A model generated the notes under the pieces. The model was not told the DNA's origin and made no database searches. It saw only the letters and a program-made list of their open reading frames with translations. From assembly GCA_000002435.2 (NCBI GenBank), contig CM018791.1: 64,000 bases of DNA; one strand, written 5' to 3'. The position numbers and the translations under genes were made by a program. Source of the stretch: Giardia intestinalis. Lineage: Eukaryota. Shown piece after piece: positions 6,679 to 64,000 of the stretch (position 1 is the stretch's first letter; each line of letters starts with the position of its first letter).

Positions 6679-9474
6679 ATGTCCAATGCCCAACTCCTTT
6701 GGTTTAATGCTGTCACATGCAATAGGATCGATGACGTTCGATATCATCTTCCCAAGTATGCAAAGACGTTTAATGAGCAGTCTGAGACTGCTCTTATGAT
6801 TGCTGTGCGACTGAATAACCTAGAGATGGCTACGATCCTGGCGGATACAGAAGCGACACTGACCAACTCTGATGGTCGTACTGCTCTCATGATAGCTGCT
6901 ATCTGCGGTCATGTCGAGATGGCGCGTCTTTTAGTAGAGCGGGAAGCACGAATTCAAGACAACTGTGGGATGACCGCGCTCATGTTTGCCATCCTTTGTG
7001 AGAATAAGCACGTAGTAGAGCTATTAGCTAGTTATGAATCAGGATTGTCGACACTGAAAGAGGTCATGGTAGGTCACCTTGATGATAATTATCTTGAACG
7101 AGAAGACAATGGCACGGATACACTTTCTGACAGCTCTTCTGTCCTATCTGCTCAAACACCTACATCCGTTACGTCAGACCGAGGAAGACGGAAAGTCGTT
7201 GTGCAACGAAAGAGGTTATCATGTAGCAGACACATAGCCCCATACTACTCTGTGCCCATAGGATACACGTCATTGCTATTTGCTATTCTATGCAAAGATG
7301 CCTACTCGGTGCAGCTTTTGAACTCAGAGCACCACATTTTAGTCTATGATCGACACAGGGATAGATTTATTACCCCATCCATTCTTGCCGTAGAACTAGG
7401 GCATATGGAGGTACTCAAAAGCCTTACCAGCCATGGACCAAGTCCTCTAACGGAGTCTGGACACTGTGCCCTGTACGTAGCTATTTTGCAAGGAAATATA
7501 GAGTGCATATCGCTGTTGTATGAATGCGAGAAGCACCTTCTTTCAGATGAGCGTATCTGCATGTCATCGGCGATGATTTGGTTAATAGAAAAGATAGTCG
7601 CATGTAATCCTACTTGCGAAGGCAATCCAATCTTCGTAGAATTTTTAAATAATTTGTTTAAATCAGATAACGCTCGGGAAAAAGACAGCCATGGAATGAC
7701 TCTTTTGCTAATGGGTGCAGCACTAAACTTACCTTGGCTTGTCCAGGCAATTCTAGACAGTGTTCCGGAAGCACTATGTGATACTGACAGTCAAGGGTGG
7801 ACTGCACTTCACTACGCAGCGGCAGCAGATAGTGTTGATACGGGGAAGTTGCTGCAGAAGAAACTCATAGGCAGCGTCGATATAAAAGGTTGTACGTCTC
7901 TTATGATTGCTGCTAAGCATGGCAGTTCTTCCATGATTAAGAGTCTTCGAAATGAAAGCACGCTGATTGACAGGCAAGGCCAAAGCGCCCTCATGCTACT
8001 TATCCAGGGAGCAGCTTCTTGTCCATGGCGGGAGCGACAAATTACAATACTAGAATCAGCACAATACATTCTTGAGGAGGAGGCAGGAATAATTAACGGT
8101 GCCTCGCGATCGGCTCTCATGCTTTCTGTCTGGCATCGGTTTTATGATCTAGCTCTCCGACTGACCGCCTATGAGAAGGGTCATCAAGATAAAAGCGGAC
8201 ACACAGCACTAATATTAGCTGTATACGTTGATTGTAGTAACGCTACACTACTTGAACGACTCAGCCAGATAGAGTCGTCACTAAGATTAAGCAATCAGTT
8301 TGGAGGCGGGAAAAGCCCTCTAATGCTTGCTATAGAGCGAGAAGCAAATCCTGTGCTACTGGATATCTTGTTGAAAAGCCAGCTTGCAACTGGCTTGATT
8401 GATGCAGCAGGCTGTAGTGCACTTATGTATGCCATAGAAAAGAAAAACACTGACCTAGGGCTACAGCTTGCACATGTTCCGGCCGAGCTAGGGCATGCAT
8501 GCTTTGCCAAAAGACAGACTGCTTTGATGAAGGCCATTCTTTCTAAACTAGATGATGTCGCAATTGTGCTTGCTTCTCGTGCGCTTGAGCTGCACAAGCA
8601 AGACTATAAAGGAAGAACGGCTCTGATGCATGCAATCGACTCTAAAAATGAAACGCTCGCCCTCATTTTGGCAGAGTCAGAGCAGAACCATCGTGACATC
8701 AACGGCAAAACAGCTCTTATTCATGCAATAGAAAGGAAGCCATCCCTCCTTTATAGGCTTAGACTGTGGGACGAGGTGCTATTATCTGATAACGATGGGC
8801 TAACACCCCTAGATTATGTAAAGCGACATCGCTCTGAACTGGTGCAGGTCAGAAATAGGCATACTAAAGCGGTTTCCACTCACAGCCTCACCGTTGACTT
8901 AATTGTGCACGGCATGGGAACACCGCTTACAGATCCCGTGAAGACATACAAGTACTTTAAGCAATACATGTACCGGGCCTATGACCGCATGGCCCTCTTT
9001 GCACGTCGGTTACTTACACGCCGGCAGGTCGATCGACATGCTAATGTCAGCAGAGAACATCTGACTAGTGGCTTGTCAGACAACACAGGTGTCGCTATTT
9101 CCCCGGCTCTAAGTCACAACATCATGCTCCAAGAAAGCCCAGTCATAAGCCAATGGTCCACGGGAATATTTCAGATAGCGAATATACTACTAGATATATT
9201 TGAATACGATTGGAATCAGCAGGTGTTTTGGGCCGATATCCCCAGCCTGCTTGATGAGTATTTGCAGACAATCAGAGCAATCGAAGGCAGTCACACTCTT
9301 AGAGATGATGAGCTCTATGAAGATTTTTGTTGTATCTGCATGGATGCTCCTGTGAAGACAGTCTTGATGCCGTGTAGACATGCCGTCCTGTGCGAGCATT
9401 GCAGCCTCAACATAAAAAAGATGTGCCCCATCTGTCGCCATACAGTCACTGATACGATAGAAATAGACCCATAA
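6679..9474 (+). CDS. ankyrin-repeat protein with C-terminal C3HC4 RING finger (putative E3 ubiquitin ligase)
   Basis: ATG at 6679. More than 15 ankyrin-like repeats (TALMIAA..GHVEMARLL). C-terminus CCICMDAPVKTVLMPCRHAVLCEHCSLNIKKMCPICRH is a RING/MIB-type finger. Confidence 0.8.
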   Translation: MSNAQLLWFNAVTCNRIDDVRYHLPKYAKTFNEQSETALMIAVRLNNLEMATILADTEATLTNSDGRTALMIAAICGHVEMARLLVEREARIQDNCGMTALMFAILCENKHVVELLASYESGLSTLKEVMVGHLDDNYLEREDNGTDTLSDSSSVLSAQTPTSVTSDRGRRKVVVQRKRLSCSRHIAPYYSVPIGYTSLLFAILCKDAYSVQLLNSEHHILVYDRHRDRFITPSILAVELGHMEVLKSLTSHGPSPLTESGHCALYVAILQGNIECISLLYECEKHLLSDERICMSSAMIWLIEKIVACNPTCEGNPIFVEFLNNLFKSDNAREKDSHGMTLLLMGAALNLPWLVQAILDSVPEALCDTDSQGWTALHYAAAADSVDTGKLLQKKLIGSVDIKGCTSLMIAAKHGSSSMIKSLRNESTLIDRQGQSALMLLIQGAASCPWRERQITILESAQYILEEEAGIINGASRSALMLSVWHRFYDLALRLTAYEKGHQDKSGHTALILAVYVDCSNATLLERLSQIESSLRLSNQFGGGKSPLMLAIEREANPVLLDILLKSQLATGLIDAAGCSALMYAIEKKNTDLGLQLAHVPAELGHACFAKRQTALMKAILSKLDDVAIVLASRALELHKQDYKGRTALMHAIDSKNETLALILAESEQNHRDINGKTALIHAIERKPSLLYRLRLWDEVLLSDNDGLTPLDYVKRHRSELVQVRNRHTKAVSTHSLTVDLIVHGMGTPLTDPVKTYKYFKQYMYRAYDRMALFARRLLTRRQVDRHANVSREHLTSGLSDNTGVAISPALSHNIMLQESPVISQWSTGIFQIANILLDIFEYDWNQQVFWADIPSLLDEYLQTIRAIEGSHTLRDDELYEDFCCICMDAPVKTVLMPCRHAVLCEHCSLNIKKMCPICRHTVTDTIEIDP

Positions 9475-25299: not shown

Positions 25300-28240
25300 T
25301 CGTGAGCATGTCGATAGAGACGACTCGAAGCGGGATCCGGCAGACACTTGGCGGGATGATGGTACTGCAGGCGAAGAGAGCCCTCGCGCTCGCCACCCCA
25401 ATCGATCTCCCTACTAAAGAGCAAGCATGTGGCTGACTCCTAAAACGGCTGCCGCTATCACTGAACCCTCTCCCCAGCTGGGCTAGTCGTCAAATGGGAA
25501 GTGGCTCATGAACGCATCACCTCGCCTTTGGGGGCCCGATTCACCTCTACTGTATCGTCCATGGCGCTAAGATTTATGGAAGACACGCCTGCTCCAACAT
25601 CCCCAGGACGCTGAGAGAGATCAGAAGGCCTTCCAAGTCCTCTGGAGGCGTTTAGATGCAACTCCTAGCTCTTGCTCTCGGGAGACCTCGATAGGGATCA
25701 GCAACCAACACGTAGACTGCGACCTATGTAATCAAGACCTGGAACAGATGGCCTTCGTTATCGACAAGACAAGAACAGGTGATGGAGCTCCGTTCTCCCC
25801 GGATCCTGTGCTCCAGAGGAGGCAGGGCTTCCAGTCACTGACTGCCCCGACAGGAGTCATGCGTCTGCTGATGCTTTGTGAGGACCGCATGGACTCCGAC
25901 TCGTGCCTATACACTGTGGATGCTGTGGGTCTCTCGAGGGAGATGCTCCGACGCCATAACAAGAACAGAAGCCTCAGGTGCACATGTGAGAGCTTGACAC
26001 GGGATATAGAGCTGATTCAGGCCTCATCTAAGAACCTGGGGGCGTTTCACACGCTGGAGGATACCAGGATTGGGGGAATCCCCATCGTCTGTTGCCCCAA
26101 ATGCTTCAGCACCAGAATGGCGAGTAGGAGACATCTGGCTAAAACGAAACACTCTGTGCTGATGTGACACCAGATGACAATCACTCAAGCATGAACAGGA
26201 CGAGCATCTGCCCGCTCTGTACAAAACCCACTGGAGCCAGAGCTATCCGAATGTACTGTGGCACAGACAGCAAGTGCAGGGTGCTACTGCGCGAAAGGAT
26301 GGAGATGGCAGAGGAGATGCACCTCGTCACACTACGGGCCACTACATGGGCAACACCCACCAGAAGGTTCCGAACAAGAATAGGCCACCGAGCGCATGAA
26401 GGACCCCCTGGCGAAGAGCAGCTGCCGCCCCATGGGGCTCCTCTCCCACGGGCCCCCTCGACCCGGACTCCTCAGAGGGGATCAGGGTAGCGTACGAGCT
26501 GCACCCTGGAGGGACACGAGCCCCCTGTCCTACAGCCAGCGGAGAGCACGGGCATCTCTCCCAAGGTCACTGACGACGAGATGACCCGGGGGTCCGTCCA
26601 TGGGCTCTCGAGGTCTCCTGGACCTTACCTGGACCTGCGTACTGGGGGTCCTCATCCCCAAGAACGAGGCAAGCATAACCTGTGGAGCGACCACGACGGC
26701 CCTTTACAGATACTACCGGGCCATCTGAAGTCCCAGGCGCTGGACACTGGGGCTTGCATGCACGTGTAGTGTGCGCTCGTATGTGCACACGAGACTGAGG
26801 AAGCCAGGCGGTCTTGCTCGACTCCAAGGCGCCCTCAACAGCAGCCCCGGTCCTGCACAGTCTCGGCCAGGAGAACGCGCCCCTCGCCCTGAGGAGCTAC
26901 ACGTGGCCTTCCTCTGGCTACAGCACACATGGACTCGGTCCCGTGCAGTGTTCCTCAGGGACCCTCTAGGTATGTTCCTATGCTGCGCTGGACGGAGCGC
27001 GCTCACTAAACAGCTGAAGGAGATGCCCCCTCAGTGCCTACGCCGACGGCGTACTGATCCTTCACGACGACAACAACGAGGTAATGAGGTTGACAAACCC
27101 ACGGACTGACGATCAACACAGACAACTCAAGAGCACCGAGGGGGCAGGAGGCTCCTTCCTGGGTGTCCGGTCTCGAGGAGCGGCTACCCACGGCCTCCAA
27201 GGAGATAGAGAGGGCAACGAAAAGGTTGCAACTGTGTCAATCGCCCACCACCCCGAGCCGAGCTGGTCTGGACAGACTCACCACGCGACCCCTACGGATC
27301 CCTCGGGGGGCAGGCAGAGCCCTCTGGGATGCTCGGCTCGAACAACAGCAGACCGAGCTCCTGGCTACGCAGGACAGCGGCGGTCGGGAGTCCACCACAA
27401 GCAGCTGCGCGGTGCTTGACACCTCGACGTGAGACGTGGCATCACAGCAGGCTGCCGAGCGGGACGGCCTCGTGGTGAGCAACGCATCGTACATGAACTG
27501 TGCTCTGATCGCTCCAATACTTCAGATAACGCCTCTCGGAGAGCTGTGACCGGGCCAGCCTCTCCGGCTGAACGACTCATGGCTCCACGTACACTCTGCG
27601 GCACGGATGGGTGCAGACCACACCAGCCGAGCCGGCACACTGCACAGGGTGTGGACCTGCGAGTGTGTACTGGCTGCTGACCACCTGGCACCACAGGTGC
27701 ACTGCGGTCCATGAACAGAAGGGCGGGCCGGGCGTTTCCTCCGCGCCAACCAGGGGTCGATATGGAGGCTACGGGTACACGCTACAGTCCAGGAGGACGC
27801 ATGGCGAGCGCACCCCGACAACAGGATCGATGGTCCACTCCACGAGGAGGCGAGAAGGAACCCGAGTCGGCATCCCGGGATTATAATACATGCGATCTTC
27901 GTTATGGAGCGCCAGCACCGAGTGGCCCTGGGTTGTACGGCCGGGAGCACTATTCCTAAGGTCAGATAGCAGCTGATCCAAGGGGACTGAGTGAGAGAAG
28001 CGAAAAACCTAGATCGATATCGTGAGAGACGGGACGGTGACTTGCAAAGCGAAGAACTATGATATTTCCCCTTTTCTGCCAGAGCTGGACAGTGTCCGAA
28101 TTTCCGATTCCAAATGCTGGACACACTGAGCGAGGATGCCGTTCAACATAGTGACTCGTACGATGGACTTACTCAGACTGCGGCCAGCAAACCAACTTCT
28201 TTTTGAAGAGAAACGACAGATTTATTCATGAGACTACAGA
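25300..28240. other. GC-rich (about 60%) ORF-poor island, roughly 3 kb, nature unknown (candidate decayed mobile element, pseudogene or ncRNA locus)
   Basis: Only short overlapping ORFs in all six frames, typical of non-coding GC-rich DNA. No A/T-rich initiator or long ORF. The composition differs from the flanking ~48-50% GC coding DNA. Confidence 0.4.
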
Positions 28241-28245
28241 GCAGT

Positions 28246-29093
28246 CTATTGGTCATTGCAACCATTGACACTAGGTGTACTGCCCCTAAGGAGAGACGCT
28301 ATCTCGAGGTATCCCCTAGAAGTAATCTTGTCAAAGAAATATTCATTAGACTTGTCTATCAGATGCCCCTCTTTTTCTAATAGAAGCTTTACCACTTCTA
28401 AGTGGCCCTTTAGCGCTCTATGTTCAAGAGCAGTCATCTCATTCCTATCCTTTACACCCCCCTCCAGATCTACTAACAATCTTGCTATTTCCACGTTCCC
28501 CATAGAAGCCGCGTTCATAAGCGCAGTCATACCTACCATGTTTTGTGCACCACTGTCGTATCTTATTACCAACTTTGCTGTCTCTATGCAACCGTGTGTG
28601 GCTGCTCGCATAAGCCTCGTGTCGCCGAATGTATCGGTTGGCTCAAGAATAATCACAATAATTTTGTGCCCTGCCTCCTTAGCAATCATCAGGGCCATCT
28701 TGCCTTCGCTGTCGATTAAGTTCTCCTCATATGGAATCAAAATGGAAGCAGCTTCTGCGCTGCCTTTTTCTACAGCGATCATCAGAGCAGTACGGCTGTT
28801 CTTGTTTCTTCTCCCACATTCGTAAGGGGCAAGAATTTCAACTACATCAGAGTAGTTGCTGTGTGCGGCGTGCATGAGTGCAGTCCAGCCGTTCTTGTCC
28901 TGGAGGCCCCTCTCCTCCCCAACAAGCAACTCGACGGGACTGATGCGCCCCTGCTCGTCGCGCTGACCAACACCAAGTCTTCTTCAAGCAGCATCCGGAC
29001 GGTCTCCATGCCGTTCGTATGCGCAGCACGCATCAGCCCGGGCAGCAAAAAGAGGCTGGACGAGGCCAGCCGTGCATTCTGTGGACTGTGCAA
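28246..29093 (-). pseudogene. ankyrin-repeat C-terminal portion of the same NEK-ankyrin gene, interrupted by two frameshifts (likely pseudogene or assembly error)
   Basis: Ankyrin consensus continues from the kinase frame into frame 2 (PGLMRAAHTNGMETVRMLL) and then frame 3 (LLVGEERGLQDKNGWTALMHAAHSNYSDVVEIL… for about 220 aa). The shifts fall at a T5 run near 29040 and at a 62-nt segment at 28927-28988 flanked by the direct repeat tgcttg. Confidence 0.5.
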
Positions 29094-30135
29094 GCCTATT
29101 CTCCAGTGCCTTAATCATAGCTAGATGTTCCTTACTTTGATCTTCAAGCGCGTCGATCTTAGTGGATTTAGTCTTAACATCCTCTTCCAGCAGCGCGATC
29201 CTGGCGTTAGCGCCATTCAGCGCAGCCTCCAAGGATCCGCACTTGTACTTCAGCATCACGCACTGACCCCCCAGCTCACCAACTGGGATGTCAGCCGCAG
29301 TGAGTGTCTCATGCAGCTCACTGGCTGTCGGCCTCCTCTCTGGCTCCAATACAAAGATCCTCTCCAGAACATTCTGTATGAAGCCATCAGTGACACCGCT
29401 CAGGTCCGGCCTCCACTCATCGACGAAGACCTCTGCTGGCTCCTTACCTTTCAGGAAGTCCGGTTTCCTTAGAGTGGCCATCTCGTAGACGATGACCCCG
29501 AGGCTCCACACGTCAGAGGCGGGGCTGGGCTCGTTGTGGAGGAGCACCTCGGGGGCCATGTACGCTGCCATGCCTGCAATGGTGCTCTCACTCCACAGGG
29601 CGTCCTTGCAGAGTTCGAGGCCAGCGATGATGAAGTACTCACCATCTACACTGACGAGGGTACTGGCAGGCCTGAGGTCGCAGTGGACGAGGCCTCTAGT
29701 GTTTGCCCCACTGAGGCCGTGGAGGTAGGCGAGGGCGGCGGCGACCTGCTTCATGACAGAGAGGATCATAGTGATAGGGACGGGGATCCTCCCTCGTTTG
29801 TGCTTGGCGAGGGGGCGCTCGAGGGTACTGTCGTGGTGGTCCGTGACGATGTAAATGAAGTCATCATCCTCGACCACTTGGTAGTGCCTGAGGACCCCCG
29901 GGTGGGAGAGGTCGAGAAGGGCGGTCAATCTTGTCTTGATGGCGTCCAGATCCCCCTTGTCCAGACCATCGAGGAGGATCTCCTTCACGGCGAGGTCTGG
30001 AAAATCCCTGAGAGAGTAGAGTGTGCTTGTGGGGTCTTTGGCCAGCACGTCATCCAGCCCCTCGTGGAGCTCCCTAGGGGTGAACGGTGGGACACTGAGA
30101 GCCACCGTTGCAGACCCAGACGAAGCAGTGTGCAT
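28984..30135 (-). CDS. NEK-like serine/threonine kinase domain plus coiled coil; predicted catalytically impaired; 5' part of a disrupted kinase-ankyrin gene
   Basis: ATG at 30135 after CCAAAATAATACCAGG. Kinase subdomains are present (VAVKEI lysine, YMAPEVL, DVWSLGVIVYEM), but the catalytic loop is HCDLRPAS (HRD Arg lost) and DFG is replaced by IAGLE. A coiled coil (LEAALNGANARIALLEEDVKTKSTKIDALEDQSKEHLAMIKALENRL) is followed by an in-frame stop after a frameshift. Confidence 0.6.
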   Translation of the reverse strand: MHTASSGSATVALSVPPFTPRELHEGLDDVLAKDPTSTLYSLRDFPDLAVKEILLDGLDKGDLDAIKTRLTALLDLSHPGVLRHYQVVEDDDFIYIVTDHHDSTLERPLAKHKRGRIPVPITMILSVMKQVAAALAYLHGLSGANTRGLVHCDLRPASTLVSVDGEYFIIAGLELCKDALWSESTIAGMAAYMAPEVLLHNEPSPASDVWSLGVIVYEMATLRKPDFLKGKEPAEVFVDEWRPDLSGVTDGFIQNVLERIFVLEPERRPTASELHETLTAADIPVGELGGQCVMLKYKCGSLEAALNGANARIALLEEDVKTKSTKIDALEDQSKEHLAMIKALENRLAQSTECTAGLVQPLFAARADACCAYERHGDRPDAA

Positions 30136-37442: not shown

Positions 37443-38867
37443 TCACTGAGGAAGTAACGATTCTACAGGGCGGTGCTGGTAGTGCGTATGAAGAAGTTCG
37501 TGAGCCTCATGCTCTGTAAGACATCCGTTAAAGCCCCAGAGGGTCTTATTTTCTCCTGCTGATGCAAAGCGCTCCTTACCATCAAGTATATCAAGCGTAG
37601 ACGCACGCGTCAAGACCGCTTCTTTCTTTCCTTTAATCTTTGGCATCCCTCCACCATTCTGGCACCCGCCAGGGCAGGCCATCTGCTCGACAACGTCGCA
37701 TTCGACCTCCTTGTTGAGCACCATCCTTGCTGCTGCGTTGATAGCAGATCCGCCATGAGCGATAAGTGCACGGTATGTTTCTCCAGCTATTTCGCAGCTT
37801 ACCAGTTTCACTGTTTGCACCAATTGGCCCGGAGTCTTGAACTCCTTTAGTAGCTCTTCCTTGACGTTTTCTATTGGAGACTTCTTCATATAAGATATAA
37901 AGCGCAGGCAAGTCTCGGCAACACCGCCGGTCTTTCCAAATATATGCGACCCGCCACTGACGGTATTGAACGGCGCATCAAAGTCCCACTTCTTCTGAGT
38001 GGAGCGGCCAGGTCTTAGGACGAGTGCATCTGCTTCGACCTCCTCTAGAGTGAGACGAGCACCATGAAGGAAATACAGATGTTCCGCCACTTCGCGCACC
38101 GTCAAACATATGTCAACGTCTCGATTGAGCTGGGGGCGCATTGATTCATCCTTCTTTGCAGTGCAAGGCATGATGTCGGCGACATAGACGTCGTCAACAC
38201 TATCAACGATACCCTTGGGAATGAGATGCTCCTGGACCCAGCGTCTCTTGACCAACGTGGCAACCATTGCAACGCAGCTCTTCGCAGTCGACACCTGCGG
38301 AAGCAGCTCTGGATATTTCATCTCGCAAAGATTGACCCATGCCGGGCAGCAGCTCGTGAACACGGGTCCACGCCCCTCATGTTTGAAGTGAAGAAGCTCC
38401 TGGGTGTCAATGACCGTTGTTTCATCAGCCCCGAAATTCACGTCAAAAACGTAGTCGAAGCCTAAGTACTGCTTGAGCATGCGTATCAGCGAGTATATTG
38501 TGTTTGTACCTATTGGCAGGCCAAAGACGTCTCCAAACGCAACGCGCGTCGAAGGGGCAATGAGAGCCACCCTGACCTTTTTCGACGCAGACTCGCCCTT
38601 ATAGATCTCCAGGTTGTTCTTGGGAGCAATTGCGTCAACAGGGCATATGGTTGCACACTGCCCACAGCCAATGCAGTCGCTGTTGAAGAGGGTAGAGAGC
38701 TTGACTATCGGAGGGTACTTCGGCTTCTCGTTCTGCTTATAGACGCCTATCCCTTGAACATCACAGGCCTTGATGCACATGTTGCACCCGATACACTTGG
38801 CGTAGTCTATCATAATGGCGTTATTGGAGTCTACGCCGGTGACGTCATGCTGAGGCTTAGGGGGCAT
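37443..38867 (-). CDS. [FeFe]-hydrogenase (short monomeric form with N-terminal 2x[4Fe-4S] ferredoxin-like domain)
   Basis: ATG at 38867 after CCTTTAAAAATG. Ferredoxin motifs CIGCNMCIKACD and CIGCGQCATICPVDAI. H-cluster signatures FTSCCPAWV (L1), MPCTAKKDE (L2) and EQMACPGGCQNGGGMP (L3). AGTGAAT polyadenylation-like element downstream. Confidence 0.92.
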   Translation of the reverse strand: MPPKPQHDVTGVDSNNAIMIDYAKCIGCNMCIKACDVQGIGVYKQNEKPKYPPIVKLSTLFNSDCIGCGQCATICPVDAIAPKNNLEIYKGESASKKVRVALIAPSTRVAFGDVFGLPIGTNTIYSLIRMLKQYLGFDYVFDVNFGADETTVIDTQELLHFKHEGRGPVFTSCCPAWVNLCEMKYPELLPQVSTAKSCVAMVATLVKRRWVQEHLIPKGIVDSVDDVYVADIMPCTAKKDESMRPQLNRDVDICLTVREVAEHLYFLHGARLTLEEVEADALVLRPGRSTQKKWDFDAPFNTVSGGSHIFGKTGGVAETCLRFISYMKKSPIENVKEELLKEFKTPGQLVQTVKLVSCEIAGETYRALIAHGGSAINAAARMVLNKEVECDVVEQMACPGGCQNGGGMPKIKGKKEAVLTRASTLDILDGKERFASAGENKTLWGFNGCLTEHEAHELLHTHYQHRPVESLLPQ

Positions 38868-54152: not shown

Positions 54153-56171
54153 CTAGTTGGTTATTCTAATTTTGTCCATACGCATCTCGGCTGCATGATC
54201 CTCCTGACGCTCCAGCGCTGCTTGCTTCCTGAACTCGAGGATGCTGACCAGACTCTTGAACAGTTTGTTCTGCGCCATCCGGTTGGGGAGGTTGCATTTT
54301 AGTTCCTCTTGCTTCGCACGAATCTCCATCATCTGGGTCTTACACGCGTTGTTCTCACTAGTGATCTCTCGCTTCAACCTGTCGAATTCTCGTACGTTGT
54401 CAGCCTGCTCCAGTTCCAGGCGTAACAGCTCCGCCTTCTTGTCTGTAACGATCGCCTGTGTCTTCAGATTGTCTATCTCCAGCTCAAGCGCTCGAACGCT
54501 TAGACGTAGCTTGTAGACTGACCCCTCCCGTGACACTTCAAGGGTCCTGGCTCGCTGATTCTCGCTCTCTGTGTCTGCTTCCAGTTGGGCACACTGGCGC
54601 TTCAATGCAGCAAGCTCAGAGACGCGAGGGGCAAGATCGCGCTTCTTCTGCTGCAATGTGGCGTCCAGCTCAGCCAGAACCGCCTTTGCTTCCATAAGAT
54701 TCTTCGCGTTTAAGCCAACGCCCCCGATGCTCCCCAGCACCCGCTGCTTTCCTCCCCCAATGGGCCTAAGTCCCCCGGCATCAGTGAGTTCATCTGGAGC
54801 CTCTGCAGAAAGATTCGGGATTGCGGCAAGGATGTCCTTTGTGCGGGAAACTATAGCGTTCTCCTTGCGCAGCAGCTGCTGTTCGTCCATTGCCTTCTTG
54901 TGCAGTGGTTTGAGAGCTCTGCCCTTTGAAAGGAGGTTCTTGAACAGTAACATGGGTATGCTGTCCATGTCATCTATGTCCTTCATCAAGCTCGCCATGT
55001 CTGTGCTCGAGCACCTCTTCGCTACCTCTGCATCTACCTCTGCACTTTCCCGCCTTGCATTTGTGAGTCTATTTTCAAGCTGTGCACGCTGAGTTTTAAT
55101 TTTCGTTATCTGCTGATTCAAGAAGCTCATTTTCTCCTGCTCATTATCTTCCTCATCCGGAGAACCAACCGTGGAAACCATTTCCCTGTACTTGACTAGG
55201 TCCGTCCGCAGGGTCTCTAACTCGTTCTCCATGAGCTCAATAGCCTCCTGTCCTGGTTCAGACTGAATCAGGTGTGCAAGTGACTCTTTCTCTGTGATTT
55301 CTGCCGTGAGGTTGATAATCTCTTGTTTCAGCCGCTTGTTCTCTGCCTCCGATGCCTCCAAGATGTTGGCAGGAGTCCCCCGAGCGGAGTTGACCACGGC
55401 CTTCGCCGCATTCAGTGCAGCACGCCGTATCTCGTTTTGGCTATTAATCTGGGTCTTTAGTTCTTCAATCTCTGAGAGCGCAACCCGGCGACGACTGGCC
55501 AAGCGAACGGCCTCTTTCGGTACTGACAGTGCCTTGGCTTGCTTCACCCGGTCGAACAGCTTATCCCTCCTTGTCAGAAATGTGGTCTTGTCAGTGGCAA
55601 GGCGCTCCATCTTCTGCAGAATCTGATCTTTCTGGACGTCTCTGTTTTGATTGAGTGCCTCTGTAAACCTACTTTGAGCTTCGCGTAGCTGGGACAGAAG
55701 CGTCTGGATCTGGGGGTCGACCATGTAGTCTGCAGGAATCACCGGGGGCAGTTTGAACTTGGAGACATAAATCGTTTCCCTGGAAGCAGCCAGGTCCTTA
55801 AGGATGGCGGAGAGGAGAACGCGCATATTGGCTGAGTCTGAAAGAACAAGCTCCTGGACAAAGGCTTGCTTGTCAGCCATGCTTCGAGATTCATTGAGAT
55901 TTAAAAGACAGACAGTGAAGTCGGTTATACCAGCGGCGACCTGCTCCAAATTGGCCGCGTTGACCTTCACAGGGGGAGGCACAGCTTTGCTGTCCTCGGC
56001 CAGAGAGTGCGGACGGACCTGGTATGCCACGTCTGCAAGAAGCTGCATTGCTCTAACGGGGTCATGCAAGATTTCTGAAAGAGTGATAAGCGTCATCCTG
56101 CGCTCGAAGGGAGGAAGATTGAGGCCGTCTGTAATGGTCTGGAGCTGATCTGTGCTTGTCGGAGGCTGCAT
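54153..56171 (-). CDS. IFT81: intraflagellar transport protein 81 (IFT81)
   Basis: ATG at 56171 after TTCTAAAAACTATG. The N-terminal calponin-homology-like block [38 protein letters not shown] matches IFT81's [36 protein letters not shown]. The [14 protein letters not shown] block and a C-terminal coiled coil of about 500 aa also fit. Confidence 0.75.
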
Positions 56172-58244: not shown

Positions 58245-59606
58245 CTACTGAACTTTTAGGCAAGCGAGCACCCCCTGGCCGCACAAGATCCCACCCTCTC
58301 CTGTGCCAGCCCTTTTCATGCGGACGAGGAATCCGAGGTGACGGATTGGTGCGGTGCCCACCTCAGATGGCTGACAGAAGCTATAGACACCTGTCTCTGC
58401 GTCAGCTCTTGCAACGTTCACAATCTCACTGGAGTAAATGAACTGAACTGCGTCCTGGCTGTCGGGGACAAGGCGCTCCATGAGGAAGTGTGTCGAGGCT
58501 GCCGCAGAGTCGGTGCGGAGCAAGGCATCCCAGGCTGCTGGTATGTCGTCTCCAAAGACGCAGTTCCCGCCGCCCTCTGCAATGGACTTCAGAACCATCG
58601 TGCTGGTATCTGGCGAAGAGGCAAGCCAGGCGGAGATCGCTTGCGGAGAGTCCAATATTTTGGAGAGAGTAGACGTAATTCCACTTAGGTATGCATACTT
58701 GCTGGTGGCTGTCAGAGTAGGCAGCATGTTCTGAACGACCTTCATACCGACAAGCTGGGCCTCAGCGGTAGGAATGGAAACCAGGGAGTGTGTCTCCAGC
58801 AGGATCCGCAATCGTTCATAGTTTGGGGTGCAGTGCTCGCGTGCATAGCCTGTGCGCCAGTAAGCGCCAGCAATTCGCAGGCATGTTCCTTTGTGCAAGT
58901 AGACGAGTCTTCCTTCTTGGGCATGCACGGCCCCTGCCAGCTCTGCACAGGTGCTTTGAACCATTGTCGATGGGATTCCGTGTGCTTTGCAATAAGAGTT
59001 ATACCCCTGAGAGATTGCAAGCTGGTCATTAAGCAGGGGTTCTTCTTCAGAGACCACCATCAACCAAACAGACGGTGTGGTATCACCCTCAACAGCAATG
59101 CGCGCAAGAGATGAATACAGCGATGCAAGGTTACTCTGCGCGATCCCTGAATGACCACAGGAAGCTTGTATGTCTGCAAGCCGTGCACTCATGCTCAGCA
59201 GCCCAACAGATACTGTGTTCATCTCGATCAGTCTGGGGCTCCGATTTACCATATAAAAGTCAGTGCGCTGGAGGATTGCAGTAGAAGCTCGCAAGACAGC
59301 AGCGTAGTCTTGTCCAAGAACGGTCTTCTTTTCTGATACTATTCTCCAGAGTACTTTACACACCTTGTCTGAGAGACATTTATTGGCCACTTCTTCAACA
59401 AGGGCACTATCCAAGGCCGCATCAGCTATGAATCGCCCCAGGAGTTCGGTCTTAGCCATGATTTCATCACATGCACTACGACTCATCACATAGGGCTCTG
59501 ATGCAATGGGAACCATGACTATGCTATCGTTGGATGACACAAATGCAATGCCTGCCTCGATAGCTCGTTGGCGAAGTTGTATGCTAGCATTCGTCTTACT
59601 ATCCAT
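58245..59606 (-). CDS. GSS: eukaryotic-type glutathione synthetase (ATP-grasp, GSS family)
   Basis: ORF track start 59612 is GTG; ATG at 59606. Family blocks IEMNTVSVGLLSMSARL (cf. IEINTISASFGGLASR), VLKSIAEGGGNCVFGDD (cf. VLKPQREGGGNNLYGEE), HFLMERLVP (cf. YILMEKIEP) and C-terminal HLGFLVRMKRAGTGEGGI…GVLA (cf. HLLRTK…ADGGVAAGVAVL). Confidence 0.8.
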   Translation of the reverse strand: MDSKTNASIQLRQRAIEAGIAFVSSNDSIVMVPIASEPYVMSRSACDEIMAKTELLGRFIADAALDSALVEEVANKCLSDKVCKVLWRIVSEKKTVLGQDYAAVLRASTAILQRTDFYMVNRSPRLIEMNTVSVGLLSMSARLADIQASCGHSGIAQSNLASLYSSLARIAVEGDTTPSVWLMVVSEEEPLLNDQLAISQGYNSYCKAHGIPSTMVQSTCAELAGAVHAQEGRLVYLHKGTCLRIAGAYWRTGYAREHCTPNYERLRILLETHSLVSIPTAEAQLVGMKVVQNMLPTLTATSKYAYLSGITSTLSKILDSPQAISAWLASSPDTSTMVLKSIAEGGGNCVFGDDIPAAWDALLRTDSAAASTHFLMERLVPDSQDAVQFIYSSEIVNVARADAETGVYSFCQPSEVGTAPIRHLGFLVRMKRAGTGEGGILCGQGVLACLKVQ

Positions 59607-60200
59607 ATCCACTTGAAATACATTGAGTAATGAACTTTAAGTGCCAATCACTCAGTTTATCACCTCTATTACAGAATGTAAAGAGACAGACCTAGAGATT
59701 GCAAGGGTTTGACAGGAGGATGCTCATTTTACTGGGGGTTCCCTCGGGATTGCTGCACCATCGTTCGCTATTTGCTTGGGGTGCCTGTAACATGTGGAAC
59801 GTGGTTTAAGATTAGCGGTTACGCATGGGAACAACTTGGAAGCCTTTAGTGAGTGCTACATCCTAATCAATCGGGTTGCGCCCACGCACAATCTTACACA
59901 CAATTATTCAGTCATGGCATAAGCTGGCGCGTACACTTCCTGACCTTGCACTGTCATGAGCAGGCGCCCTTCTTCGATAACATCCAGGTATAGTAGTGAC
60001 GGATTGTGTGGGTAAATCACACTCATCGAAACAGAGTAGTCGAGAGCCCATACTGTGGAGAAAATGTCGCGTTGTAATCTGGAGCATTCCTGTATAAGCA
60101 CCCATATCCCATGCCTGAGTGGTCTACCGCACCGCAGGACTGACGAACGATAGATTTTGCTGTGAAGAGACCAGCATGACATTTACAGAAGCGGCACAGT

Positions 60201-63871: not shown

Positions 63872-64000
63872 GGGTGTTGAGTGAAGGATGCTCTGTCAAA
63901 TCGTCTAATCAAGGTATTGACCTCAGACAGGGATAACAAGCCATCATTGCATTTTTTACGTTTCACTTCGATTTATTCACTTACTTGTGGTGGAATGCCT

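Follow-up and report, generated by a model that had tools for sequence, protein, structure and literature searches.

A eukaryotic-type glutathione synthetase with an intact catalytic core and non-canonical substrate pockets in Giardia duodenalis

The minus strand of a 64,000-nucleotide stretch of Giardia DNA (contig CM018791.1 of assembly GCA_000002435.2; hereafter the window) encodes, at positions 58245-59606, a real member of the eukaryotic-type glutathione synthetase family, here denoted GSS for the Giardia gene and its product and GS for the characterized enzymes. We consider it fairly probable that the product is an active ATP-grasp orthologue of GSH2 that carries out the canonical second step of glutathione synthesis, in a low-flux, vertically inherited pathway with specialized uses. 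An initial annotation of the window had called the gene a eukaryotic-type GSS with the hallmark blocks in order, and the Pfam and PDB matches, the AlphaFold2 model, the Foldseek comparison and the residue map presented below bear this out.

Results

Family and fold

A match to PF03917 (GSH_synth_ATP) covers residues 25-448 of the product at 72.6 bits (cut-off 25). Nested within it, residues 180-286 match positions 2-107 of the 107-position profile PF03199 (GSH_synthase) at 49.1 bits (cut-off 20.9). The significant matches of a PDB sequence search were exclusively chains of GS or homoglutathione synthetase (hGS), led by 5oes (5e-13), 2hgs (6.5e-12) and 3kaj (5e-11), and a search with a profile of the Giardia orthologues likewise returned GS and hGS only. 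AlphaFold2 run on a 134-sequence alignment yielded the model used here, with a predicted local distance difference test (pLDDT) of 96.1 and a predicted template modeling (TM) score of 0.94; the six Giardia sequences alone gave a pLDDT of 37. Foldseek aligned this model with the ligand-bound yeast, human and plant structures 1M0W, 2HGS, 5OES and 3KAL at TM 0.78-0.82 (E 1e-24 to 1e-29), and the remaining ATP-grasp ligases reached TM ≤0.59. By this comparison the protein has the GS fold, a circularly permuted ATP-grasp. Its score against the equivalog model TIGR01986 (glut_syn_euk) is 94.3 bits, below the cut-off of 329.8; the other Fornicata GSS tested score 42-263 bits, all under the same cut-off.

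Catalytic, ATP and Mg2+ residues

Human residue numbers follow the human sequence, verified against the 2HGS alignment for residues 135-468, and the pockets are defined in addition from the potato StGSS1 table of Lilley et al. 2018 (PMC5919673, S4 Table). Residue counts are out of 123 other homologues, a set that is enriched for Giardia-like sequences and includes uncharacterized bacterial-type members.

The GSS motifs occur in the expected order: R114, E128-x-N130, Y249-WRTGY254, K289, K340-x3-E344-GGG, M376, E404, R429-x-K431 and the E437-GG loop. The Mg2+ ligands E128, N130 and E344 (human E144, N146, E368), the ATP site formed by K289, K340, M376, E404 and K431 (human K305, K364, M398, E425, K452) with the Gly-rich G345-347, and the catalytic R429 (human R450) are all kept, and every one of these positions is invariant across six G. 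duodenalis sequences. The cysteine pocket is canonical as well, formed by R114 and S133 together with a small residue at position 135; the change of human S151 to Gly or Ala (G135 in the window) is also found in 47 of the 123 homologues. Two further replacements were seen: human N373 is Cys (C349) in Giardia, G. muris, Hexamita and 5 of the 123 others, and human M129 is Tyr in Giardia GSS.

The initial annotation had reasoned that loss of ATP-grasp catalytic residues would make the protein a pseudo-enzyme. No such loss is seen, and because its catalytic residues are intact GSS is not a pseudo-enzyme. We rejected that idea as the main explanation, as the catalytic residues are all invariant and the ratio of nonsynonymous to synonymous substitution rates (dN/dS, omega) is about 0.16. 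On the same two grounds, the retention of all Mg2+, ATP and catalytic residues and dN/dS of ~0.16, Giardia GSS is presumably an active ligase maintained by selection.

Substrate pockets

Comparison of the structure and of the substrate loop, which the initial annotation had proposed as a check, gave a divided answer: the fold and the catalytic core are canonical, and two elements of the substrate pockets are not. The first is the gamma-glutamyl pocket. At the six positions that define it (potato Q222, E225, N227, Q231, R279, Y282) the window protein has S186, E189, L191, Q195, R251 and Y254, so that four of the six (E189, Q195, R251, Y254) are canonical. Human Q211 is replaced by Ser (S186), and human N216 gives way to Leu or Met in every one of the six G. 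duodenalis sequences (L191 in the window). The equivalent Asn is retained by 118 of the 123 other homologues and by G. muris, Hexamita and Carpediemonas, which confines its replacement to the G. duodenalis complex. We considered whether N193 might make up for the Asn lost at 191 and rejected this, as position 193 is Thr in P15.

The second element, the loop covering the C-terminal amino-acid substrate, has the sequence GG-I-L-C-G in the window and GG-I-L-H-G in the remaining assemblages (B, E and two further lineages), compared with GG-V-A-A-G in human, yeast and potato GS and GG-V-L-P-G in soybean hGS, where the change from Ala-Ala to Leu-Pro contributes to specificity (Lilley et al., PMC5919673, S5 Fig legend). 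A bulky pair occupies the two positions elsewhere in Fornicata (Met-His in G. muris, His-Cys in Hexamita, Met-His in Carpediemonas). Among the 123 homologues the first position is A, S, C, V, I or H and the second A, S or T; because both vary so widely, the loop residues are unreliable predictors of specificity. Nematode Gpa-GSS1 has three of six canonical gamma-Glu-pocket residues, yet prefers gamma-glutamylcysteine and glycine (PMC5919673), and since it remains a GS the four of six in Giardia are compatible with canonical activity. Judged from the alignment, the residue patterns cannot by themselves decide the product. Together with the TIGR01986 score, the pocket residues weaken the assignment as a canonical GS and leave that as an active GS-type ligase as it was.

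Selection and relatives

Among five G. duodenalis lineages, dN/dS of GSS is 0.14-0.18 at dS 0.6-1.6, a saturating range (Nei-Gojobori), and the gene is under clear, sustained purifying selection. Its length is kept at 453-456 amino acids across these lineages, and the open reading frames (ORFs) are intact in six independent genomes. GSS evolves faster than its neighbors (omega 0.16, compared with 0.00-0.01 for the adjacent kinase and ~0.09 for the sugar transporter).

Beyond G. duodenalis, an exhaustive HMMER search placed G. muris (138 bits), Hexamita inflata (125) and Carpediemonas (94) as the closest matches; two profile searches of a word-indexed protein database had returned Giardia orthologues and one plant GS only. 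The G. muris protein is shortened (410 amino acids) and just 27% identical to that of the window. In a rough neighbor-joining tree Giardia GSS clusters with G. muris and Hexamita. Given this grouping we set aside lateral transfer from bacteria, although so crude a tree cannot settle deeper origins; the GSH2 tree of PMC6934886 was inconclusive too. Eukaryotic-type GSS homologues in bacteria (Chrysiogenes arsenatis and a metagenome-assembled genome labeled Aeromonas) are among the closest non-Fornicata matches, and some bacterial-type homologues carry a diplomonad-like V-H-S...GQGVL loop. Hexamita inflata has two near-identical GSS copies. In view of these, the conclusion that the ancestor of Hexamitinae had lost glutathione synthesis (PMC6934886) may need revision.

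Gene boundaries, host and gene order

The ORF listing of the window gives an uninterrupted minus-strand frame at 58245..59612 that opens with GTG. Read from its first ATG (59606), it encodes 453 amino acids plus the stop, with the N-terminus MDSK, and because this start coincides with the starts of all orthologues the limits 58245-59606 are exact. Orthologues are 98% identical in a cluster known solely from read-archive assemblies, 81% in G. lamblia P15 (annotated "Glutathione synthetase, putative"), 68% in G. duodenalis ("Eukaryotic glutathione synthase") and 64% and 65% in two further lineages. The window gene is very probably GL50803_15429 of the WB reference, an identifier that comes from PMC8700996 and whose equivalence to our gene we infer.

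A CDK-like kinase, GSS and a sugar transporter follow one another in this order in the window and in each of the five Giardia lineages compared, and IFT81 comes next after the transporter in every contig that reaches that far. A full-length Rfam match (89.5 bits, 63890-63948, minus strand) identifies GlsR6, a Giardia-specific box C/D small nucleolar RNA that serves as an organism marker. Because of GlsR6, the 81% match to the P15 protein and the gene order shared with five Giardia lineages, the window is Giardia duodenalis, in agreement with the Giardia-like organism that the initial annotation had named. The pattern of identities suggests that it is most probably assemblage A.

In the public assembly SRR13990249 the GSS gene is base for base that of the window, minus one C. 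There (contig L008, 1501-2861) the missing C breaks the gene into ORFs of 287 and 166 amino acids. The frameshift falls in a C4 run of a short-read assembly; it may be a genuine null allele carried by a laboratory line, or else an artifact of assembly.

Upstream of GSS, ~595 bp separate it from the kinase gene in the window (59607-60200), compared with 667 bp in P15 (L004, 2334-3000) and 56 bp in an assemblage-B-like contig (L005, 2945-3000). The window spacer contains a 92-amino-acid ORF (59904-60182) without support. Past the GSS stop we found imperfect matches only to the poly(A) signal AGTRAAY, which are uninformative.

Table 1. Positions of GSS, its functional segments and two other genes in the window.
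Feature	Position	Strand	Evidence
GSS, complete coding sequence (453 amino acids + stop)	58245..59606	-	ORF, PF03917 and PF03199, orthologues, model, fold match
R114 (human R125, potato R137), cysteine-pocket Arg	59265..59267	-	In 119/123 homologues and all Fornicata; role from PMC5919673
E128-M-N130-T-V-S133-V-G135, Mg2+/ATP ligands and cysteine-pocket small residues (human S149, S151)	59202..59225	-	E and N invariant
C4 homopolymer (GGGG on the plus strand), codon 190/191	59036..59039	-	One C fewer in SRR13990249, giving a frameshift
S186-EEE189-P-L191-LND-Q195, gamma-glutamyl pocket segment	59022..59051	-	Alignment; pocket from PMC5919673
PF03199 substrate-binding domain, residues 180-286	58749..59069	-	49.1 bits
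Y249-W-R251-T-G-Y254, substrate loop with gamma-Glu-binding Arg and Tyr (human R267, Y270)	58845..58862	-	Invariant
K340-SIA-E344-GGG-N-C349-V-F351, Gly-rich ATP loop (human K364...E368 GGG N N373 x Y375)	58554..58589	-	Alignment
R429-M-K431, catalytic Arg and ATP-binding Lys (human R450, K452)	58314..58322	-	Catalytic Arg from PMC5919673
E437-GG-I440-L441-C442-G443, "Ala-rich" loop closing over the C-terminal amino-acid substrate	58278..58298	-	Alignment
FeFe-hydrogenase	37443-38867		
IFT81	54153-56171		

Other features of the window

The neighborhood described in the initial annotation was recovered: the FeFe-hydrogenase, several ankyrin-repeat ORFs, a kinase and ankyrin pair, and IFT81. The pair is on the minus strand: ORFs for a protein kinase (28984-30135) and for ankyrin repeats (28246-28929) form one frame with a single in-frame stop between them. 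Together (28246-30135) they look like a NEK-ankyrin gene broken by one stop, which could reflect a sequence error, a pseudogene or a gene expressed by read-through. Among the 21.1-like genes is one (6679-9474, plus strand) whose product combines ankyrin repeats with a C3HC4 RING finger at the C-terminus and is a candidate E3 ligase of the ankyrin type. A segment at ~26000-28100 has a G+C content of 0.61, compared with 0.45-0.50 elsewhere in the window; we found in it no ORF above 200 amino acids, no tandem repeats and no Rfam match.

Discussion

The probable pathway in Giardia

According to Jimenez-Gonzalez 2019 (PMC6934886), which cites the 2007 genome paper, Giardia has GSH1, GSH2 and a glutaredoxin-like protein. 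The glutamate-cysteine ligase (GCL, GL50803_16001) and GSS (GL50803_15429) are both up-regulated in mid-encystation by RNA-seq (Rojas-Lopez et al. 2021, PMC8700996). The 64,000-nucleotide window holds no GCL, whose presence in Giardia is taken from these two papers. The gene, its GCL partner and the public annotation are thus already known, and the gene itself is no discovery. The initial annotation had spoken of a possibly overlooked pathway, which does not fit with GSH1 and GSH2 in PMC6934886, GCL and GSS in PMC8700996 and public records that name the orthologues "Glutathione synthetase, putative". It had also allowed that a documented GCL partner would make the finding ordinary. At the gene level this is the case, because GCL and GSS are already annotated and discussed. 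The remaining interest lies in the specificity of Giardia GSS, not in the existence of its gene.

In the scheme that we favor, gamma-glutamylcysteine would be supplied by the separately encoded GCL. GSS would phosphorylate the C-terminal carboxylate of this dipeptide to an acyl phosphate, which the amino group of a glycine, the probable third residue, would attack to form glutathione. The pathway would have been inherited vertically within Fornicata and would run at low flux, giving a small glutathione pool and not a bulk thiol buffer, a role that cysteine fills in Giardia. Such a pool could plausibly provide a ligand to the mitosomal monothiol glutaredoxin and Fe-S machinery, and be of use in encystation. 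Family, fold, catalytic integrity, selection, synteny and the Fornicata orthologues come from the present analysis, and the GCL partner and its co-regulation with GSS from the literature. A 2026 inventory of the mitosome offers a circumstantial point: a Giardia carrier complements yeast mtm1, the human homologue of which imports glutathione, and the authors suggest pyridoxal phosphate or glutathione as its substrates (PMC13643923). The methods of PMC13643923 give a gene identifier unlike the GL50803_15429 of PMC8700996; one name or identifier may be a slip.

Several observations weigh against a canonical, glutathione-making enzyme. Reviews still describe Giardia as without glutathione and dependent on cysteine and thioredoxin reductase (PMC4588103), the classical view that the initial annotation had given correctly. 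Glutathione reductase occurs in no Fornicata and glutathione peroxidase only in a few free-living members, not in Giardia (PMC6934886), and the usual glutathione consumers are therefore missing; because no Fornicata has the reductase, thioredoxin reductase has been proposed as the reductant of glutathione (PMC6934886). In the searchable literature we found neither an enzyme assay of Giardia GSS nor a modern thiol profile of the axenic parasite. The statement that Giardia lacks glutathione reportedly goes back to the classical thiol analysis of Brown et al. 1993. To these points are added the low TIGR01986 score, the loss of the gamma-Glu-pocket Asn, the altered Ala-Ala loop, the faster evolution of GSS relative to its neighbors and the low identity to G. 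muris.

Competing explanations

Some of these points can also be read as signs of the second option raised in the initial annotation, an active enzyme with shifted specificity, which would add a non-glycine amino acid (beta-alanine, serine, alanine or similar) to gamma-Glu-Cys or act on another acyl dipeptide. We regard this as possible but on balance unlikely. It would account for the Leu-Cys of the window and the Leu-His of assemblages B and E and two further lineages in place of the conserved Ala-Ala, where the Leu-Pro of soybean hGS contributes to the specificity of that enzyme, and for the bulky loop residues common to G. muris, Hexamita and Carpediemonas. It also fits the replacements of human N216, confined to G. 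duodenalis, and of Q211, and the score far under TIGR01986. There are precedents in plant GS homologues with other third residues, such as the rice hydroxymethyl-glutathione synthetase OsGS2 (PMC6508825), and in nematode GS-like effectors that keep the ATP site and alter the dipeptide pocket. The loop positions, however, vary widely among homologues and the Pro of hGS is absent from the Giardia loop, while the cysteine pocket is canonical throughout, as are four of the six gamma-Glu-pocket residues, and a nematode GS with three of six is glycine-specific. In addition, the conserved, co-regulated GCL points to gamma-glutamylcysteine as the acyl substrate, and no glutathione analogue has been reported in the searchable literature. 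If specificity has shifted, such an analogue would be invisible to searches for glutathione itself. We think it rather doubtful that GSS of G. duodenalis, and perhaps of Fornicata generally, has an acceptor site remodeled to make gamma-Glu-Cys-X, with X other than Gly, or to take a modified acyl substrate. Such remodeling could explain why Giardia is described as having no glutathione despite conserved, regulated genes for GCL and GSS.

That GSS is a relic of an ancestral Fornicata pathway, decaying or dispensable, whether as a pseudo-enzyme or as a gene under relaxed constraint, seems very improbable to us. The faster evolution of GSS (omega 0.16, against at most 0.09 for its neighbors), the 27% identity to a G. 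muris protein of only 410 amino acids and the frameshift in one public assembly of the same strain would suit it, as would the losses recorded in PMC6934886: the synthesis genes, present in Kipferlia, are not found in Spironucleus salmonicida, and glutathione reductase and peroxidase are not found in Giardia. But omega of 0.14-0.18 at dS 0.6-1.6 reflects sustained purifying selection, the catalytic and nucleotide-binding residues are invariant in all Giardia lineages, the ORFs are intact in six independent genomes and the transcript is regulated in encystation (PMC8700996). The frameshift itself, in a C4 run of a genome assembled from short reads, is possibly an error.

What makes the gene worth pursuing is a mismatch: reviews deny glutathione in Giardia, yet purifying selection maintains both genes for its synthesis in a genome that has neither glutathione reductase nor peroxidase. 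The residue map offers a concrete hypothesis for it, with an intact catalytic core, a Leu-Cys/His glycine loop and an Asn to Leu/Met change in the gamma-Glu pocket. Were the product not glutathione, it would be a parasite-specific thiol and the enzyme a parasite-specific drug target. The enzyme would be such a target as well if mitosomal Fe-S assembly or encystation turned out to require a small pool of glutathione.

Comparison with known systems

Canonical GS (human 2HGS, yeast Gsh2 1M0W, potato StGSS1 5OES) has the same two Pfam domains as Giardia GSS, and the structures superpose at TM 0.78-0.81. The Mg2+, ATP and catalytic residues, the cysteine pocket and four of six gamma-Glu-pocket residues are shared, and according to the literature so is a GCL partner. 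Identity in the structural alignment is only 18-21%, and Giardia differs in Ala-Ala to Leu-Cys/His, N216 to Leu/Met, Q211 to Ser, N373 to Cys and M129 to Tyr, and in having no glutathione reductase or peroxidase (PMC6934886).

Soybean hGS (3KAJ, 3KAK, 3KAL) has the same fold, and 3kal_B has the top TM among the matches listed (0.82). The Leu at the first "Ala" position is shared (GGVLPG and GGILCG); the second position is Pro in hGS and Cys or His in Giardia, and Giardia GSS has no phylogenetic affinity to legume hGS. The soybean enzyme arose by recent duplication of GS in legumes and its pocket is otherwise canonical; no beta-alanine supply or homoglutathione is known from Giardia.

The cyst-nematode effectors Gpa-GSS22 (5OEU, 5OEV) and Gpa-GSS30 (5OET) match the Giardia model in Foldseek at TM 0.70-0.78. 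In these GS-like proteins the ATP-grasp site and the catalytic Arg are kept, the dipeptide pocket is changed and canonical activity is lost (PMC5919673); in the pocket table (S4 Table), Clade 3 has 0-2 of the six canonical residues and GSS30 retains Arg. These effectors are secreted and stem from a multigene expansion. Giardia GSS, in contrast, is a single gene with four of the six, and a wholesale replacement of the gamma-Glu pocket like theirs is not seen.

The proteins of G. muris (TNJ27015.1), Hexamita inflata (CAL6031318.1) and Carpediemonas membranifera (KAG9391735.1), at 25-28% identity to the window protein, share the bulky residues of the Ala-rich loop with it, and those of G. muris and Hexamita also the Cys at human N373. 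Unlike G. duodenalis, all three retain the gamma-Glu-pocket Asn, and in Carpediemonas that pocket is fully canonical, with six of six.

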